This document shows positions 12,663-63,356 of a DNA stretch of 64,000 nt, piece by piece; position 1 is the first letter of the stretch, and each line of letters begins with the position of its first letter. Where the stretch lies: IMG/VR virus record IMGVR_UViG_3300032401_000010, one strand, 5' to 3'. The DNA comes from a virus. The notes beneath the pieces were generated by a model, which made no database searches, was not told the origin of the DNA, and saw nothing but the letters and a program-made list of their open reading frames with translations. The position numbers and the translations under genes are program-made.

Positions 12663-13100
12663 TCATTCGGCAACACCCCCATAAATTTTAATGAACGTAT
12701 AAGCATCTTCTCGTTTTTGGAACCACCAACCTGCATCGTAAATCTCGCCATCATTAAGACAGATAGAGCCATTGCGAGACCAATCACGCGAGTAGAACCT
12801 CCCCGTAGCAATATCATCAAATTCGCGCGTTATATCCTCGGACGATTTGTCAACTTTGTTTTTGATTGCAAGCTTTACAAATGGTGGATGACGATTTTTT
12901 TCGCCACTAGAATCCACAAAATCACATCCTGGATAACCATCTAACGACACTTCATGCCAATCCCACATCAATAATTTCTTTTTCCATCCGGCATTGTGCT
13001 CCATGTGCGTCTGCCCCGGAATGCATCTAGCCTCACATTCGACACATCTAGCATCACGCAAATCAGCTCGCTGGCTCGGATTGTGTTTAAATGATGTCAT
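12663..13100 (-). CDS. hypothetical protein encoded in a GC-rich island
   Basis: 145-aa ORF in a roughly 50% GC segment. Possible Cys-active-site motif (NGSICLNDGEIYD) with weak L,D-transpeptidase-like resemblance. Confidence 0.35.
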   Translation of the reverse strand: MTSFKHNPSQRADLRDARCVECEARCIPGQTHMEHNAGWKKKLLMWDWHEVSLDGYPGCDFVDSSGEKNRHPPFVKLAIKNKVDKSSEDITREFDDIATGRFYSRDWSRNGSICLNDGEIYDAGWWFQKREDAYTFIKIYGGVAE

Positions 13101-13325
13101 GATTTGATGCTCCTAATAAAAACGTCGTAGTTGTCCCTGTGCCAGCTCCGTTGCACCCGGTCGTGACCCTCATGCGCTCGCCGAACAGACTAGCGCCATC
13201 GTATCGTCCCGGCGCTTGTGACATGTTGGCGTAGCCCATGTATGTCGCGAACAGCAGCGCGATGATGTCCGGATCGGAGGTGCCAACGACGAGGCTATGC
13301 GCCGGAATGTAATAGGCGTTCATCG

Positions 13326-14375
13326 TCATTTTGTCAAAAAACCTTCGCCATGAAGTTTTAATATTACTCGCCCAAGTTTATCATGTCTGCGCTCAAACAC
13401 AGGGCGAATAACCACGCCTTCTCGAACGTGTTTGTTATCTAATGTTGAACTGCCTTCAGCAAGCTCATAAGCTTTCTCTTTATTCCATGGCCCCATATAA
13501 AGAACAGGAGCTATAGGCAAATCAAGAGCGTTAGTTATAGAAATAAACTCATCAAAATCTACATACCTCCGAAGATTACGATCATATATATCAAATAATC
13601 TAAGACCAGCCTCACCGCGCTTGACACTATATGGAAAACCTCCGGTGTAACCACATGTCTCACCATAGATAACAATTTTTCTATTGTTAGCCGCCTGCCA
13701 TGACGCAAGCTTATTTTCTAAATTATAAAGCTCAGCGGCCTTGCCCCAGCCACCAATACCACTTTTCTTTACATTAGTTCTAGAACCAATCCATAAACGA
13801 TTATCTTCATAACAAAATCTTGCGTTTTCTCCATGAATCTTTTCGACCATAATTACTTCTTCGCCATCAACAAAAATATTTTTCCAGCGCCTTAATCCTT
13901 CAACATCAGTATACGTAGGCATGTAATGATAATCAGGCTCATTCAGTCTTGTGTCGCCAAAGTTATATCCCTCATCTGGTGGCGGCTCATATTTATCAAT
14001 ACCTAACTTTTCCCTAACGTCTTCGCCTTCAACCATGCCTTCGTCAGCATGAATAAGTAAACCCATGCTAAATACACCACGAAGGCGCCTAGCTTTAATC
14101 CTGCGATACTTTGCTGGTACTTGACCAATGGGAGGCGTAGGCTCTTTTATATTTCCTTCCTTGTCCTTTTTCGGAGGAGGAGCAAGGAAGTAGAATTTTT
14201 CATTATCTGGACATAAACTATCTACCGGAATATAAACAACTAAATCTCCAGGCTTAAATTCTCCAAGTCTAACGATAGCAGGATAGTCCGCTACCTTAGT
14301 AATACCTAAGGTGTCGGCATCGGGATGTTTCGTAATTTCCCCAATACGAACAACTTCTATATGAAATTCGGTCAT
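13326..14375 (-). CDS. RNA ligase with N-terminal tRNA-binding OB (Myf/EMAP-like) domain
   Basis: N-terminus IGEITKHPDADTLGITKV resembles the HP(D/N)ADKL tRNA-binding OB fold. The nucleotidyltransferase motif I is MVEKIHGENARFCY (KxHG(E/T)N, as in Rnl2, DraRnl and NgrRnl). Confidence 0.6.
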   Translation of the reverse strand: MTEFHIEVVRIGEITKHPDADTLGITKVADYPAIVRLGEFKPGDLVVYIPVDSLCPDNEKFYFLAPPPKKDKEGNIKEPTPPIGQVPAKYRRIKARRLRGVFSMGLLIHADEGMVEGEDVREKLGIDKYEPPPDEGYNFGDTRLNEPDYHYMPTYTDVEGLRRWKNIFVDGEEVIMVEKIHGENARFCYEDNRLWIGSRTNVKKSGIGGWGKAAELYNLENKLASWQAANNRKIVIYGETCGYTGGFPYSVKRGEAGLRLFDIYDRNLRRYVDFDEFISITNALDLPIAPVLYMGPWNKEKAYELAEGSSTLDNKHVREGVVIRPVFERRHDKLGRVILKLHGEGFLTK

Positions 14376-18930: not shown

Positions 18931-19500
18931 TCAGGCGAGGATGTAGCGCGTCTTTCCCTTGGTTCCTTCACCGCGCACAGCACCTTCCTTTTTCATACCG
19001 TAAAGATACGTATTTAGCGTTCCCCCAGTAACAGGATTGCCCTGAGCAGCAAGTTTATCCTGAATGTCCGAAACACGAAGGCCTTCCTTACCGACGCTCT
19101 TCAAAATTGCTGAAATCTTACCCTTCCAATCTGGACGATTCTGGCTTTGAGCCTGAGCGGGCTCAGAAACACTCGGTTCATTCTGAGCCTTCGGAACCTT
19201 CGGAGCCTTCGGTGCCTTCGGAGCCTTTGACTCCTCTTCCTTCTTAGCATTCTTTGAGCCCTTGGGACGCCCGCGAGTCTTACCCGTGGTTGAAGGACTA
19301 AATGAACGAAGCGCAGAAACAAGCTTCTCTGCCTCAGAGGCAGCAATAGCCATGCGCTGCGTTGCCATAGAACGGAATTCCGGGTCTGTTTCGAAAAGAT
19401 CGGCAAGAACTGACAGTTGCGTAGCATTGAGTGACATTTGTTTTTTTTCCTTTGTGAGAGAGTGATTTGAGGCGCGTTTCGCCTTCAACAACATCAACAT
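18931..19500 (-). CDS. basic DNA-binding protein with AT-hook-like GRPKG, KAPKAPK repeats and a histone H1/H5-like winged-helix C-terminus
   Basis: GRPKGSKN AT hook, (KAP)n repeats, and a C-terminal segment ISAILKSVGKEGLRVSDIQDKL resembling a linker-histone globular domain. The gene sits in a locally GC-richer segment, with a hairpin-plus-T-tract terminator immediately downstream. Confidence 0.4.
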   Translation of the reverse strand: MLMLLKAKRASNHSLTKEKKQMSLNATQLSVLADLFETDPEFRSMATQRMAIAASEAEKLVSALRSFSPSTTGKTRGRPKGSKNAKKEEESKAPKAPKAPKVPKAQNEPSVSEPAQAQSQNRPDWKGKISAILKSVGKEGLRVSDIQDKLAAQGNPVTGGTLNTYLYGMKKEGAVRGEGTKGKTRYILA

Positions 19501-44688: not shown

Positions 44689-44973
44689 TCATGGAGACAG
44701 TGGCAACCAATCTTGGACAGCGGACTCTCGTAAGCACCTCTCGACAGTATACCGAGCCATATGAGCTGCTTGGTTTTCCATAGCACTCTGATCACGTCCG
44801 AAGTTCCCAGCCAGACCCACCTGACATCGCGCCATGCTGGCTGCTAGATCAGGGAGATTGACCCACTTGAACTTAGGCCCTCGGAACTTGGGGTTAAGGA
44901 ACATCAGAAAGTGACTATAGGCCGTGGCTTCCCCTAACCCACTGGCAATGCCGAAACGTCGATTGGAAAGCAC
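44689..44973 (-). CDS. hypothetical protein in a GC-rich patch (GTG start)
   Basis: 94-aa ORF. A TTGACT-N16-TAAATT element lies 6 nt before the start. Confidence 0.35.
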   Translation of the reverse strand: MLSNRRFGIASGLGEATAYSHFLMFLNPKFRGPKFKWVNLPDLAASMARCQVGLAGNFGRDQSAMENQAAHMARYTVERCLRESAVQDWLPLSP

Positions 44974-45003: not shown

Positions 45004-45774
45004 TCAATAGCCAAAAGCTTTTAATTCTTCATCAGATATAGGAATTGGTATGCGATCAGATCTTCCTACAGTTCCTTCTTTAATTGGAATAGCTTTAAGT
45101 TTGATTCCCAAAAATTCTGATAATTTATTTAATGTATCTTCTTGATGAAGAACAAAATCTTCGAATTTAATATGAATAAAATTCTTTGGCTTGGGAGTTG
45201 CTGCTACTATTTTCATTTGATACAGCCAGCTTTCTACCCTTCGTTTTAATATATTTGGTTCGTAACTTAATTTTGTACGCACATTAAACGAAAAAATATT
45301 ATCAGTAAGATGAGCTTTTAATAAAGCGTCCCGTGGATCCCTAGTCCAATGTATATAATAAGCATCAGGAAACATTTGCGTAATCCAAGGATAACATAAA
45401 TTAGTTTCCGGTAATTTCCATCCACGATCCCCATTATGAGTTAATATATTAAGAAGATATTTATTTACTAAAATTTTAAATAAGATTGTTGGCTCTTCTT
45501 TAATTAACTTAGAGAAGTTCCAATCATTAATACATATAGATTTTACATAGGCGCCAGCAATTCTAGCAGCGTGATACATATGCCTTGCAGGAACTAAATC
45601 CCCTGAATCATTTGTGGTGCCCATATAAACACCACTCTCAGATAGAGTTTGACTTATGGCTCTAGTGCCGCCATGCCCTCTTCCAATTACTATTATTAGT
45701 TTCAAGTCTTTATTAAAATAGTTATATAGAAGATTTGTTATTTTCAGAAGGCTTGTTGCTTTCGAAAAATTCAT
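45004..45774 (-). CDS. hypothetical protein (weak P-loop/sulfotransferase-like GRGHGGT motif)
   Basis: 256-aa ORF. Confidence 0.4.
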   Translation of the reverse strand: MNFSKATSLLKITNLLYNYFNKDLKLIIVIGRGHGGTRAISQTLSESGVYMGTTNDSGDLVPARHMYHAARIAGAYVKSICINDWNFSKLIKEEPTILFKILVNKYLLNILTHNGDRGWKLPETNLCYPWITQMFPDAYYIHWTRDPRDALLKAHLTDNIFSFNVRTKLSYEPNILKRRVESWLYQMKIVAATPKPKNFIHIKFEDFVLHQEDTLNKLSEFLGIKLKAIPIKEGTVGRSDRIPIPISDEELKAFGY

Positions 45775-46003: not shown

Positions 46004-46572
46004 GGGATTGCATCTCTCATGTTGTAATCATAAATGAATACATCTTTGGTAATACATTTCTGTATAAGCTTTTCAATTTCTTCCCAGCTTCCTCCAGCAA
46101 GCCCGCATCCGAATCTTGGAGCGACCATTGTAGCATTAAGCTTAATCAAATAAACATTTAGTTTATTGAGACAGCTTTCTACAGCCTCATATCTAATTGG
46201 AGGTTGATATTGATACTGATCTGATTCGCCATGTTGGAGACGATTGCTACTTCCGTAACCAACTTGTCCAATCATGTTGGCTACCCAAACGCCAGAAATT
46301 CTTTTAATAGGGTCACTTATAAATTCCTGCTCTGTAAATCCAGCCTCAACAACATTTATTAGCTGAATGTTTCCAAGAGCGAATGGATCAATTTGAGCTT
46401 TGTATTGTCCTTTATACCAAGAGCGATATGCTTTTTCTGGCTCGGACCATTTTTTTGATACTGCTATAACAAACCCAGCGCCCCAACCACCGGCATCATT
46501 ACAGACATGAGCAATGATTTTATTTCCTTCCCCAACAGGTTCTGTGGCATCACCTTCTAAGTAGTGGATCAT
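45991..46572 (-). CDS. macro-domain-like protein (ADP-ribose binding/processing)
   Basis: IIAHVCNDAGGWGAGFVIAV resembles the macro NAAN...GGGV motif. The start was placed at the internal Met (MIHYLEG), because the track's N-terminal extension is encoded by the adjacent GC-rich island. Confidence 0.4.
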   Translation of the reverse strand: MIHYLEGDATEPVGEGNKIIAHVCNDAGGWGAGFVIAVSKKWSEPEKAYRSWYKGQYKAQIDPFALGNIQLINVVEAGFTEQEFISDPIKRISGVWVANMIGQVGYGSSNRLQHGESDQYQYQPPIRYEAVESCLNKLNVYLIKLNATMVAPRFGCGLAGGSWEEIEKLIQKCITKDVFIYDYNMRDAIPWKK

Positions 46573-46779
46573 TTGTTTCCTTAAGTTGTACCGCAGATCC
46601 GCAGAGCGCGCGAAGCCCTTGCTCGACGCACTCGGCAGTGAAATTGTACCAACCGACGTACCGCTCCGGGTGGTCACCGCTCTCGATGTCGGCAAGCTCC
46701 CGGTCCCGCAGCGCGGCGCGTGTCGGCTCTGTCAGCCACTCGCGGGCAGGCTCCGCCTGATCTGCCGTTACGTGTTGCT

Positions 46780-47112
46780 TCACGGTTGCACCGCAGGTTT
46801 CTCGGGCGTGCTCACCTTCAACGCTCGAATGCGCTCGGCGCACTGTCGAGCCATAACGGCCTCACGCCAATAGGGTGTAGGTGGCACGGCGCAGGCGAGC
46901 GCCGCCTCCTCCAGAACGGCGTTTCTGAACACGCGATCCTTCTCGGTCTGCTCGTCCGGCGCCTTGAGAAGTTCAGTGGCTATCTCGCGAGACTCTTTGA
47001 GGCTCTGCCGCTCTAACTGGGTAAGAGGTTCAGTTCCGTAGCAGTTTTCCGTAGGTCTAAAACTTTCCATTCGCAAACTCCGATACGGCCCGACCGCGTG
47101 CCAGTGTTTCAT
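46780..47112 (-). CDS. hypothetical protein encoded by a roughly 60% GC island
   Basis: 110-aa ORF. A phage-type TTGACA-N16-TATATT promoter and GGAAGA site lie upstream; the body is GC-rich, unlike the surrounding genome. Confidence 0.4.
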   Translation of the reverse strand: MKHWHAVGPYRSLRMESFRPTENCYGTEPLTQLERQSLKESREIATELLKAPDEQTEKDRVFRNAVLEEAALACAVPPTPYWREAVMARQCAERIRALKVSTPEKPAVQP

Positions 47113-47130
47113 TCTTCCAACTTAAATTTA

Positions 47131-47158
47131 ATATAAGACCCGATTTTGAATTGTCAAG
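47131..47158 (-). promoter_or_regulatory. sigma70-like promoter (TTGACA-N16-TATATT) for the GC-island gene
   Basis: Minus-strand read: CTTGACA-ATTCAAAATCGGGTCT-TATATT, then GGAAGA and the ATG. Confidence 0.5.
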
Positions 47159-47191: not shown

Positions 47192-47392
47192 TTATAACTC
47201 GTCTTCTGTTGGATTTCGAAAGTCATCAGTATGATAACCCCAAAACACTTTTCCATCACGATTAACAACTGTGCAGTGTCCTCGCATGTTTTTAATTTCG
47301 CCTAAAAACAAAACATTCTCTCCATTTTTGAACGGATATTTGTCTTCGTATCCAGAAGGAAGATCAACAATCATTACTTTCATTACTTTCAT
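47192..47392 (-). CDS. hypothetical small protein
   Basis: 66-aa ORF. Confidence 0.35.
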   Translation of the reverse strand: MKVMKVMIVDLPSGYEDKYPFKNGENVLFLGEIKNMRGHCTVVNRDGKVFWGYHTDDFRNPTEDEL

Positions 47393-48327: not shown

Positions 48328-48543
48328 AACAATGTCAATATATTCACTAAGTCAAAAACTAGGAAAAATTAATTTGGCTGGCACTTCAGGTACATAATCT
48401 GTTGGGAGCACACCGGTACCGTCGCATACGCCACAAGTTTCGCATGGATGACAGTCGCCAACATGCCAGCCACGCCCTTTGCACTAATGACACCGTACCT
48501 TATTTGCTTGATCCTTATGCTCGTCCATCACACATTCTCCGTG

Positions 48544-48635
48544 TCTCAAGTTCTGGAGTTGAACCAGAATCTCCCGGCCTATGGTCCGTACCGAAGTGCG
48601 TAGCACCGGAGTTCTACCGATTGAACTAACTTGAG
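48544..48635 (-). ncRNA. tRNA-like structured RNA (canonical acceptor, D and T arms; non-canonical anticodon/variable region)
   Basis: Minus strand: CTCAAGT-TA-GTTC-AATCGGTA-GAAC ... TCTGG-TTCAACT-CCAGA-ACTTGAG-A. The 41-nt central segment has no clean 5-bp/7-nt anticodon arm. Locally GC-rich and free of ORFs. Confidence 0.4.
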
Positions 48636-48712
48636 GGGTTTGAATCACCTCTATTATGGATCTTCTGGCCGAGGATTAAGTTTCGATATTAACATCTAAC
48701 TTTAGTTAACTA

Positions 48713-48975: not shown

Positions 48976-51255
48976 TCAAACATTAGGGTTTTTATTTTTT
49001 AATTGTTCTAAAAACGATTCTGCATTGGCATAAGTCTTAACAGCCGTATCAATTTCATTACGAATAGCTATATTCTCAAGATGAATAGTAATTGATGTGT
49101 CTATATCCTGTGGTGATACCGATATAAACTTATCCAATTTGGACTTGAATTTTGCTCGTTGTTCGGTGGTTAATTTATTAATCTCAAATTTATGATCTTT
49201 ATTTAACCATTTAACAAGTTTTTCCGCCTCGGCCTGATTGTTGTTTACAAACCAAGTCATTTTCTCGCGCCAAATATGATCTGCTACCTTGCGAATCACA
49301 TCTCCGGTAGCGCCTTCTAACCTTTGTGCAAGAGCAGACCAAACATTGTTATTAAGTTCCGATGAAGTTGGGATATAATCAGTAAAGTTTTTTAACAACT
49401 GTATACGATGATCGTTAGTTAATTTTCCGCAAATAATTACTTTTGAAAATCTTCGTAACATAGCGATTGGAATGTTTTGAGGAGTATTCGTTGCTCCCCA
49501 AACACTCAAACTTGGATAATGAACAACGCCATCCATCAATGTTTGAAACTCAAGCGTAAGATTCGAATCTCCATTACGAGATAGCTCTGGCTTCCTTAAC
49601 ACAGAATCAATCTCATCAATCAAGATATGAACATGCTTACCGCTATTTTTATGAAGCTTCAAAGCGCATTCAAATAAACGCTTAGGGTTTTTCTCCATCT
49701 CACCTTTCCAACAAGTATTGAAGTCGGAACCCTGTGCATAAACACCAATGGATTTTTTATCTCCGGCAACAGAGCGCAGAATTTCTGACTTCCCGCATCC
49801 TTGCGGACCTACAAGCAGAACGTTGGATTTGTCTGCCGTCTTGCTTGGACTTGTTGCAATAAACAAATCATGCCACTTAGACGATGATTCAATTTCATTA
49901 ATAAAACTTTTGACATCATCAAAACCGCTTCCAATAATATCATCAAGCAAAATGTTGGGACGCTCACTAGGAATAATTGTTAGTGCGCCAGGAGCTTCGC
50001 CAGAGAATGGGTTACCAGCGCCAATCTTACAAACATAGAAGCTGTTCTCATCCTGATAATAGGCTTTAAGCTCCTTCTTCCTCTTCAGAACGAACTGAAT
50101 CAACTCGCTAACTTTGTTGGTATCAAAACCATTACTAAGCATTTCAGTTATTGTTTTGATTGTTTCGTTCCTGAAGTTTTGTTCAAACCTCTCTTCACTA
50201 GATAGAAGTTTGGTGTTAGGCTTATAAACGATGTTCATCGGATTAACATCTTCAAGCCTATCTACAATAGAATTAAATTCCGATTCAGAAATTGGATTAC
50301 GATAAGAACGATTGCTTTTCTTGGCGTTCGTTAATTCCTTTACCTTAACAATTTCGTTTTCAAACATTCCAGTTAATACAGAAGACATGTTCCAGAATGA
50401 ATGCAAACTGCTGGATATAAAGCTCATAAAGAACCCAGGCGTAGTAATAAATGATTTTGCCGCACCTCCGCTAATAGCTTCGCCGATAACCTGTGCCTTA
50501 CGAACAGAATAAGCCGAAACCTCATCCGGGTTTTTTCCCGCCTCAATTTCACCATGAGCATCTATATTTTCATAGATAGCCATAGCAACATCTGTGACAA
50601 TGGGATCCTTAAAAATTTCCATACCACCGCTGGAATGGCGGTTCAAAAGAGAACGATAATAATCTTCAAGAAGCCAACTTATATCTCTTTGTGCTAATTT
50701 ATATGTAAGCTCAGTAAGTTGTTCAAGATTCATAACGGCATTAGAGAATCTATTAATACAAGAACTATTAATCTGGTTCTCAACTTGAAAAGACATTAAT
50801 CGCTGAAGATCGTTGCCTTTGCCGTCAAATCTTTCATCGGAAATCATAATAGGCTGTGGAATTAAATCCTCTGCCGTACTAATAATAGCTCTGAAGAAAC
50901 TTTGGTACCTTACAGTAATTTCAAAAGCAACGCGCAAGAAGTTGTTTGCGCTAAGATTATGTCTATAATTGCTAAAATCATTCTCCATATCCTCAAGATC
51001 TTCCAACGGATTTCGCATGCGAGTAGTGGCGCGAATCTCCTGAAGCATTGCGTTATTGGACCTAGCAAGAGATTCGGCCTCAGCATCCATAATAGAGGAC
51101 GCATCCCTCATCTTTGATATGGCTTCGGTCAACATCATTAACTTATTGTTATCGATGGATCGCATTAAATCAATCAATCCATAAAAACGAGCCGGATTAA
51201 TATCCGCTGCGGAAGGGATCTTCACATCGACATTGAACATATTGGATTTAGACAT
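48976..51255 (-). CDS. large protein with C-terminal AAA+ ATPase domain
   Basis: Walker A LLVGPQGCGKSE and Walker B HILIDEIDS in the C-terminal third; N-terminal 450 aa unassigned. Confidence 0.6.
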   Translation of the reverse strand: MSKSNMFNVDVKIPSAADINPARFYGLIDLMRSIDNNKLMMLTEAISKMRDASSIMDAEAESLARSNNAMLQEIRATTRMRNPLEDLEDMENDFSNYRHNLSANNFLRVAFEITVRYQSFFRAIISTAEDLIPQPIMISDERFDGKGNDLQRLMSFQVENQINSSCINRFSNAVMNLEQLTELTYKLAQRDISWLLEDYYRSLLNRHSSGGMEIFKDPIVTDVAMAIYENIDAHGEIEAGKNPDEVSAYSVRKAQVIGEAISGGAAKSFITTPGFFMSFISSSLHSFWNMSSVLTGMFENEIVKVKELTNAKKSNRSYRNPISESEFNSIVDRLEDVNPMNIVYKPNTKLLSSEERFEQNFRNETIKTITEMLSNGFDTNKVSELIQFVLKRKKELKAYYQDENSFYVCKIGAGNPFSGEAPGALTIIPSERPNILLDDIIGSGFDDVKSFINEIESSSKWHDLFIATSPSKTADKSNVLLVGPQGCGKSEILRSVAGDKKSIGVYAQGSDFNTCWKGEMEKNPKRLFECALKLHKNSGKHVHILIDEIDSVLRKPELSRNGDSNLTLEFQTLMDGVVHYPSLSVWGATNTPQNIPIAMLRRFSKVIICGKLTNDHRIQLLKNFTDYIPTSSELNNNVWSALAQRLEGATGDVIRKVADHIWREKMTWFVNNNQAEAEKLVKWLNKDHKFEINKLTTEQRAKFKSKLDKFISVSPQDIDTSITIHLENIAIRNEIDTAVKTYANAESFLEQLKNKNPNV

Positions 51256-62759: not shown

Positions 62760-62849
62760 TGTTTATATTTGCACAAACCGGGCCAAACATTGTGACATAA
62801 ACCCTTGCTTACCTTACAGTAAGCAAGGGCTTATGCCAGCGGCTTTGGC

Positions 62850-63356
62850 TCACGCCGGAACCATTGCAGCCGTTGCAACCGTAGCAGCAAGCTTGGCCAT
62901 ACGAACTTCACGGGCATGAGCCATGTTCGCCTGACGCTTAGCCTTAACCTCAGCCGCGTGAGCAATGGAATCACTTGGCGTAGAAACAAGCTTGGACTCA
63001 CTCAGCTTGGTCATACGAACCGAACGAGCCTTTGCCATGTTTTCGCGACGCTTATCAGCGACCTCTTCCGCATGGCGCAGAGCTGGCACGTCAACCTCTC
63101 GAATGCCCGCAGCGCAGCCGCCGCGTCCACCCTTGAAGTTAGCATACTGGGTCTCTCCCATATTAAAGACGCCTCCTTCGACAGCCGCCTTTACAATTGC
63201 GTCCTGATACTCACCACCAGGAAGTCCGAACTTTTCTGCGAGCATAGAGTGAATTTCGTTTCGCTTGCAGATTCCTCCATCCTTGCAACGCTCCTGAAGA
63301 AGCTTGCACACTACCTGGATAATCGGCTGCTTGAACATACTGTTAATTCCGGTCAT
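62850..63356 (-). CDS. hypothetical protein with internal 16-aa repeat, in a GC-richer segment
   Basis: RRENMAKARSVRMTKL and RQANMAHAREVRMAKL repeat. Preferred over the overlapping plus-strand ORF because it matches the orientation of all neighbours. Confidence 0.4.
   Translation of the reverse strand: MTGINSMFKQPIIQVVCKLLQERCKDGGICKRNEIHSMLAEKFGLPGGEYQDAIVKAAVEGGVFNMGETQYANFKGGRGGCAAGIREVDVPALRHAEEVADKRRENMAKARSVRMTKLSESKLVSTPSDSIAHAAEVKAKRQANMAHAREVRMAKLAATVATAAMVPA

Follow-up and report, generated by a model that had tools for sequence, protein, structure and literature searches.

The virus record IMGVR_UViG_3300032401_000010 of the IMG/VR database, of which a stretch of 64,000 nucleotides (nt) was analysed here (the window, from whose first letter all positions are counted unless another contig is named), carries on its minus strand a 528-nt island of GC-rich DNA that encodes two small proteins, ORF1 and ORF2 (ORF, open reading frame), directly upstream of a gene for a macro-domain protein. 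We consider it probable, at roughly 80%, that this island is a two-gene block acquired horizontally from the early-gene arrays of temperate-type phages of 62-65% GC that belong to the same habitat. The block would have been inserted in the 5' leader of the macro gene, between its early promoter and its ribosome-binding site, in the genome of a large lytic phage of 37% GC. The only potentially new aspect of the case is a junction motif of about 50 nt, found inside the island and many times over in the presumed donor arrays.

Composition, setting and population states of the island

Between 46573 and 47115, where the original prediction had placed a GC-rich island of about 60%, the GC content is 0.606, as compared to 0.372 +/- 0.05 in all other windows of 543 nt (z = 4.7), the highest of which reaches 0.538 at 62771. 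The deviation, for which a sliding-window calculation had been proposed as a check, is the strongest of the whole window: the bin 46501-47000 (0.598) ranks first among 128 bins of 500 nt, the runner-up having 0.50, and 200-nt windows peak at 0.625-0.67 between 46600 and 46999. The rise in GC is thus where it had been announced and only its limits have to be adjusted, the foreign segment proper extending from about 46585 to 47112, with the native ribosome-binding site of the macro gene (46573-46584) outside it; the GC content of the surrounding genome, given as about 34%, has to be raised to an average of 37% (37.4% for the 64 kb). Both predicted ORFs exist on the minus strand where they had been placed, with the correction that ORF2 begins at a GTG codon at 46783 and not at 46843. 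The GC content at third codon positions (GC3) is 0.65-0.73 in the island, 0.71-0.82 in the donor contigs and 0.21-0.35 in native genes, and as the value of ORF2 (0.73) is close to that of its donor homologs (0.79-0.82) and far from the native range, little amelioration has taken place.

The same seams are found in contigs L010 and L011 (ENA), L012 and L104 (JGI) and L013 (Logan), which are 99.5-99.97% identical to the window over 4 kb. The island form is identical in at least six independent assemblies from three pipelines and a variant form is present in two more; the recurrence of the same junctions in eight independent assemblies (ENA, JGI and Logan) excludes an assembly artefact, and the island is real. 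Neither the region nor the island by itself had a match in DNA similarity searches of GenBank phages and PLSDB plasmids, and no convincing direct or inverted repeat borders the island.

On the minus strand, the end of a 66-aa gene is followed by the promoter, an AT-rich leader that was read directly, ORF1, ORF2 and the macro gene (Table 1). The promoter fits 11 of the 12 consensus positions, which makes it the joint-best match of the interval 44-52 kb and the best one of the coding strand; the pattern TTGACA-N16-TAnnnT occurs at nine sites on the minus (coding) strand and none on the plus strand (2.4 +/- 1.8 in shuffled sequence), always with a spacer of 16 nt and once in front of a tRNA-Thr gene. 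At the equivalent position upstream of the macro gene, the related contigs L015 and L017 have a TTGACA(A/T)TT site. Because relatives devoid of the island carry the promoter too, and because of the nine-site set on the coding strand, the promoter is native, as had been predicted for the TTGACA-N16-TATATT sequence at the 5' end of the island. Promoter-like or terminator-like sites were found neither inside the island nor at its end, and the stretch from ORF2 to the macro gene is free of promoter-like sites. The macro gene, which has 4832 homologs, many of them named macro domain or O-acetyl-ADP-ribose deacetylase, is context: it is the original gene served by the promoter, now the third cistron, and not a part of the island.

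In L015, a syntenic contig of 130 kb with a macro protein 65% identical to that of the window, the promoter lies directly upstream of the macro gene: the stop of a 317-aa gene is followed by gcctcgggccTTGACAatttaaagctaatccttacgttgaaataaaaATG and the macro gene. Nothing separates the TTGACA promoter from the macro ATG in L015 and L016, where the window holds the 528-nt island. The macro protein of L017 is 87% identical, and another insert, of about 150 nt and about 50% GC, lies there between the TTGACA promoter and TTAAGGAAGCAAATG; this insert (215-365 of L017, JGI Ga0315286) has no ORF, no Rfam match and ordinary folding (z = -0.86), and could be a remnant of another insertion. Since it is empty in L015, filled differently in L017 and occupied by the island in the window, the stretch between promoter and ribosome-binding site is a variable slot, with four states in all: empty (L015), the 150-nt insert (L017), two genes (the window, L010-L013 and L104) and three genes (L014 and L103).

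The last state belongs to the same phage, L014 (Logan) and L103 (JGI) having flanks 99.2-99.8% identical to the window (99-100%). In both, the segment for the C-terminal domain of ORF1 is replaced by a longer one, which carries a different ORF1 tail, so that ORF1' has 76 aa and ends in ...IPVQP* (asterisk, stop codon), a second copy of the junction motif and an 86-aa gene of phrog_28500, a widespread phage family with 164 IMG/VR loci. In these contigs ORF2 has its own ATG and ribosome-binding site and another gene in front of it, and the identity of L014 with the window resumes at 46782. As the three-gene variant retains the EQTE codons of the C-terminal-domain family, the comparison suggests that it derives from the two-gene form, presumably by a second exchange.

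The core of the original prediction, foreign DNA recently captured and wired to phage transcription, is supported by the empty slot of L015, by the donor-like GC3 and by the native promoter set.

Table 1. Positions of the island, its seams and its native surroundings in the window
Feature	Position	Strand	Details
Sigma-70-like early promoter	47130..47157	-	TTGACA 47157-47152, 16-nt spacer, TATATT 47135-47130
AT-rich native leader	47113..47129	-	aaatttaagttggaaga; between -10 box and ORF1 ATG
ORF1, 110 aa	46780..47112	-	ATG 47112, TGA 46782-46780
ORF1 C-terminal-domain segment swapped in L014/L103	46793..46940	-	148 nt replaced by 387 nt
Donor-type junction motif	46745..46799	-	GGTG ribosome-binding site, CAACC, GTG start, leader AAGCAACACGTAACGGCAGATCAGGCGGAGCC
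ORF2, 77 aa	46550..46783	-	GTG start 46783-46781, overlaps ORF1 stop as GTGA (46783-46780)
Right seam	46585..46596	-	CTGCGGTACAAC, truncated 5' half of next donor junction; donors read CTGCGGTGCAACCGTGAAGC...
Native macro-domain gene, 193 aa	45991..46572	-	phrog_335 at 4e-28; start 46572
tRNA-Arg, anticodon ACG, 93 nt	48544-48635	-	ARAGORN; focused Rfam scan 47 bits

Presumed donor arrays and the junction motif

Homologs of ORF2 form 11 clusters of free-standing proteins (59-79 aa, 65-99% identity) with a strongly conserved core, WLTEPER...ADIESG.HPERYVGWYNFTAECVEQGLRALCG, and their upstream partners vary between contigs. The DNA of ORF2 is 81% identical to that of its homolog in L001, with 9, 9 and 20 differences at codon positions 1, 2 and 3, and with 17 synonymous and 13 non-synonymous codon changes; this pattern indicates purifying selection on the ORF2 frame. 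Codons 1-66 are foreign (GC 0.657); native sequence of 36% GC supplies the remaining 11 codons and the stop, across the ribosome-binding site and first codons of the macro gene. Donor homologs end in '...GSAVQP*', where the window reads '...GSAVQL KETNDPLLRR*': with the loss of the donor stop codon at the seam, ORF2 acquired its native tail.

ORF1 is a chimera of 53 orphan residues and a shared domain (residues 54-110). An exhaustive phmmer search of 1.84 billion representative sequences with ORF1 gave five hits, and residues 1-53 had no match in this set except in the same phage. Residues 54-110 form a small helical domain common to the proteins P0003, P0004, P0005 and P0137, with the pattern EKDRVFRN.VLEEAA..C...QCA.RIRALK, and the DNA at 46955-46749 is 71-73% identical to two loci of 62-65% GC (L101 and L102). 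In the AlphaFold2 model (pLDDT 66), residues 1-26 are disordered and helices span residues 32-49, 57-75 and 85-96. An alternative start of ORF1 exists at M15 (47070), behind a GGAG box with a 7-nt spacer.

The contigs that carry homologs of ORF2 and of the C-terminal domain of ORF1 have 62-65% GC and hold them in strings of small genes on the same strand with 4-nt overlaps, which adjoin genes for CI/CII-like helix-turn-helix regulators, DnaB and DnaC/IstB-like proteins, a PAPS-reductase-like gene (phrog_424) and other PHROGs. Several of these carriers are classed as viral by IMG/VR, and nearly all of them, as well as the recipient phage, come from one sample series (JGI Ga03152xx, ENA ERZ272476xx-479xx). 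With its rIIA, ligases and tRNAs, the recipient resembles a large lytic phage, and a lysogeny module was not seen in the window. Cultured phages are distant on both sides, the closest having at most 40% identity for the donor DnaB and at most 29% for the RIIA of the window.

The small genes of the donor arrays are joined by a motif of about 50 nt, (GGAG/GGTG)nCAACC-GTG/ATG-AAG-CAA-CAC-GAA-ACG-GCA-GAC-C..GG.GGAGCC, which comprises a ribosome-binding site, a start codon and a leader encoding (M/V)KQH.TA..EP, and which often overlaps the ...QP* stop of the preceding gene. Across 169.5 kb of donor loci, its 10-nt core, [AG]TGAAGCA[ACG][CG], was counted 89 times on the coding strand and not once on the opposite one, as compared to an expectation of 1.5, in 39 distinct contexts, and it stands in front of 15 short ORFs and of genes from at least 14 unrelated protein families; the donor-type contigs that bear it are L001-L009, L018, L101, L102, L105-L120, L125 and L126. 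Some copies head ORFs of a mere 19-26 codons that overlap the start of the next gene. In IMG/VR the strict pattern is rare, being found in three contigs, which are GC-rich and carry several copies on the coding strand. Using a nhmmer profile built from 39 donor junctions, we obtained a single significant match in the 64 kb of the window (46799-46745, E = 3.1e-9), at the start of ORF2, whose leader encodes KQHVTADQAEP, and none in L015 or L017. An exact 18-mer of the window junction is present in donor loci. Neither an inverted repeat nor a consensus RNA structure is apparent in the 39 aligned junctions.

The same motif marks the right seam of the island, which cuts the next junction copy 5 nt before its start codon, the native sequence TTAAGGAAACAAATG, with the ribosome-binding site and start of the macro gene, beginning at 46584. 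The left seam lies at about 47105-47113, GC rising only after 47105. We considered whether the start of ORF1 (ATGAAACAC...) is a degenerate copy of the junction, and the profile scan gave no support for this. The right edge of the swap in L014 coincides with the start codon of the junction motif, and in L114, a contig of mixed composition, a GC-rich block ends at the motif start codon (...GGTGCTACTGTGA|gtcttgtttgaaaataat). L109, a contig of about 45-50% GC with two tRNAs (at 70-262), contains a motif-joined array of 1.2 kb and 63% GC (750-1950). The blocks of L109 (750-1950) and L114 (1-600) are thus GC-rich segments with ORF2 homologs and motifs within sequence of lower GC, and both contigs are unrelated to the window outside ORF2. 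These observations suggest that such cassettes entered several phage backbones in this habitat.

Probable course of events, competing explanations and known systems

We infer the co-transcription and translational coupling of the genes, the recombination mechanism and the order of events. Contact with GC-rich phage DNA would have come about by co-infection or through a resident prophage, and acquisition by illegitimate or short-homology recombination, with the right crossover falling inside the conserved motif of the start region. Host RNA polymerase would start at the native promoter and make one early transcript that runs through ORF1, ORF2, the macro gene and onward; ORF1 would be translated from its own start and ORF2 by coupling at the GTGA stop/start overlap, and ribosomes on ORF2 would run on over the macro start for 11 native codons, possibly altering translation of the macro protein. 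The three-gene variant would have arisen later, from a second exchange with the donor gene pool.

Several points weigh against an acquisition of this kind or narrow what it explains. The island is absent from the relatives with macro proteins of 87% and 65% identity, and the nearest donor DNA found is only 81-88% identical, too distant for the actual donor, so that the word recent must be taken as relative. The N-terminal half of ORF1 (54% GC) has no homolog anywhere from which its origin or the left seam could be told. Neither phage could be assigned to a host, which makes co-infection of a shared host a conjecture; expression of the island genes is predicted. Finally, the structure models are mediocre (pLDDT 65-66) and the fold searches uninformative, which makes any function a guess.

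The rival that deserves the most attention, although we regard it as rather unlikely, holds that the junction of about 50 nt is itself the substrate of recombination, in a cassette-shuffling linker system, analogous to the PeSL of T4-type phages (see below), by which small early genes move as units even where phages lie up to 28 GC points apart; the island and the variant of L014/L103 would be two successive products. The strict orientation of the core and the diversity of the families behind it would fit such a system, as would the changing partners of the ORF2 homologs, the presence of motif-joined arrays on three backbones (the temperate-type phages, the phage of the window and the tRNA-bearing L109) and the position of three seams (46585, the L014 swap at 46782 and the GC block of L114) within about 8 nt of a junction start codon. 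However, selection for intact genes alone places surviving seams at gene ends, according to Hendrix's view of moron accretion, few seams were examined, and the left seam of the window has no match to the motif. Nor does the motif show an inverted repeat or a consensus structure, no associated recombinase was identified, and the motif could instead be a translational or regulatory signal kept for expression.

A capture from the chromosome of a bacterial host, as a non-phage host gene, was one option of the original prediction. A composition of 60-66% GC would fit a GC-rich host, phages do take up host genes, and a resident prophage is physically host DNA, so that the distinction is partly semantic. 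Yet the ORF2 family occurs in none of 185,579 species-representative genomes of GTDB, all informative carrier contigs look like phages, the island bears the junction motif of phage arrays, and the extra gene of L014 belongs to a family found throughout phages; GC-rich phages look like the source, and we hold a host origin to be improbable. Still less credible is the proposal that the two ORFs are halves of a longer gene disrupted by a +/-1 frameshift, a pseudogene, to which the out-of-frame overlap and the open frame upstream of ORF2, up to 46843, had given some appeal. The overlap is a classic GTGA stop/start, ORF2 homologs are free-standing with their conserved core right after the leader, the ORF1-type proteins of donor contigs stop at the same '...AVQP*', a different gene stands between the two in L014/L103, and no homolog spans both ORFs. 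The idea that the segment is a structured RNA, which had been named as a possible refutation, recalls that GC-rich patches in AT-rich phages are often RNAs, as is the case of the tRNA at 48544-48635. The island has no Rfam match at E <= 1, its transcript folds no better than shuffled sequence (z = -1.06), and ORF2 has third-position bias and protein homologs; with the recurrence of the junctions in three assembly sources against a chimera, we give a structured RNA or an assembly chimera hardly any credence. The island is protein-coding and holds two separate genes.

Taken as an acquisition from GC-rich phages, the island is a moron-like foreign cassette, an ordinary case of phage gene borrowing with unusually clear seams. 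Genes added between two neighbours of a phage genome are known as morons (Juhala/Hendrix; Cumby et al. 2012, PMC3594210), and classical ones come with a promoter and terminator of their own and show expression from prophages that are repressed (PMC3594210). A benefit to the lysogen is a further part of the concept. Like them, the island is additional DNA that separates elements lying side by side in the relatives L015/L016, has a deviating GC content (0.606 vs 0.372) that implies horizontal transfer, and consists of small genes of unknown function. Unlike them, it has no promoter or terminator of its own and uses the resident early promoter of a lytic-type phage, and it would be co-transcribed with the downstream gene.

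A second comparison is with the PeSL-flanked cassettes of ORFan genes in the hyperplastic regions of T4-type phages (Arbiol et al. 2010, PMC2839356; Comeau et al. 2014, PMC4122927), for which the PeSL study mapped crossovers between the -10 box, the Shine-Dalgarno sequence and the ATG. There as here, the phage is large and lytic, has rIIA and sigma-70-like early promoters, and offers a variable slot directly behind an early promoter that small orphan genes fill, and near-identical genomes differ by insertion or replacement of cassettes, as in the four slot states described above. By contrast, the nine native promoters of the window have no common GC-rich stem-loop upstream, and the one that serves the island follows nothing more than a hairpin (dG -15), AT-rich and overlapping the 66-aa gene at its 3' end; the island is not flanked by the PeSL motif on both sides and has no second promoter copy at its far end; the repeated linker is owned by the donors and is a translation-start and leader motif instead of a promoter-terminator motif; and the island bridges unrelated phage types that lie about 28 GC points apart.

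Boundary sequences between modules are reportedly known from the lambdoid phages HK97, HK022 and HK620, in line with the modular theory attributed to Susskind and Botstein. Related experimental work deals with homeologous recombination (Martinsohn et al. 2008, PMC2327257). The resemblance lies in short conserved sequences at gene boundaries as possible crossover points for modules of temperate phages; the donor motif differs in its length of about 50 nt, which includes a start codon and an 11-residue coding leader, and in its reuse before at least 14 unrelated small genes in one array, its role in recombination being putative. Integron cassettes, too, form arrays of promoterless small genes in the same orientation, with a repeated junction and an upstream promoter. 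Unlike theirs, the junction of the island has no imperfect palindrome resembling attC, no inverted repeats at its boundaries and no consensus structure; as an attC-like structure is lacking, the island is not an integron cassette. No integrase (IntI tyrosine recombinase) or attI site was noticed among the annotated neighbours of the arrays, for which no systematic search was made.

Protein function, neighbouring genes and biological meaning

The two proteins belong to new, tiny families. Scans of ORF1, ORF2 and the extra gene of L014 against Pfam, PHROG, NCBIfam and PADLOC gave nothing significant apart from phrog_28500 for the extra gene, and weak matches to BrxA (E ~0.02, 12 bits) were dismissed as noise. 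No sequence relatives of either protein were found in the PDB, and fold searches with the small, helical AlphaFold2 models returned nothing or generic helical matches only. By position only, in the donors within an early accessory region next to repressor and replication genes, and in the recipient behind an early promoter and next to the macro gene, we tentatively propose that ORF1 and ORF2 are accessory early proteins that may bind factors of the host or of rival phages, a suggestion that we judge somewhat less likely to be right than wrong. The two genes do not form a recognisable toxin-antitoxin pair, no Pfam, NCBIfam, PHROG or PADLOC family being found at a significant level and the partners of ORF2 homologs changing between contigs.

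Further GC-rich patches of the window had been listed in the original prediction; they exist, but they are weak (0.50-0.55 GC) and of mixed nature and are not comparable to the island. The patch at 48380-48660 is explained by the tRNA-Arg gene of Table 1, which the filtered Rfam scan of the whole window at gathering threshold had missed; it has an insertion of about 20 nt in the region of the anticodon loop and may be an intron-containing or otherwise unusual phage tRNA. The ORFs in the other patches (13087-13329, 18931-19500, 44689-44973 and 62850-63356, all on the minus strand) encode 80-189 aa with GC 0.50-0.55 and GC3 0.48-0.65, have no Pfam or PHROG match and may be older or different foreign acquisitions.

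The accessory early region beside the island (45004-45774, minus strand, and neighbours) encodes a sulfotransferase (PF13469), the macro-domain protein and RNA ligases, and an NAD synthetase and a Cu2-monooxygenase-like protein are found further along the window and in near-identical contigs, a set of auxiliary enzymes that is unusual for a phage. The macro gene and a 307-aa gene have no relatives in IMG/VR. The 66-aa gene upstream of the promoter begins with a 9-nt tandem duplication (47371-47388, minus strand; TCATTACTT twice on the plus strand) that encodes its start MKVMKVM, and L013 has one copy fewer, with a product of 63 aa, which points to a repeat-number polymorphism in the population. 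The AAA-ATPase gene of L015 (1-2796, > 1035 aa) carries an intein (PF14890, Intein_splicing), which its 759-aa ortholog in the window (48976-51255, minus strand) does not have.

The island offers a textbook-style example of phage mosaicism, with a right seam defined to the base (46585/46584) and a left seam placed within about 10 nt, and natural populations contain the empty site, an alternative insert and both states of the cassette, the donor pool coming from the same sample series. It provides no direct biological payoff yet as far as its two proteins are concerned, which offer no functional lead. What it does link is a lytic phage of 37% GC with temperate-type phages of 62-65% GC, which implies physical contact between them, probably in a shared host, over an unusually large compositional gap, and this is useful for linking phages to hosts in metagenomes. 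Should the junction motif act as a linker in recombination, it would point to a system of cassette exchange among environmental phages not described before, and the idea of targeted shuffling developed for PeSL would extend to another kind of motif and to unrelated types of phages.

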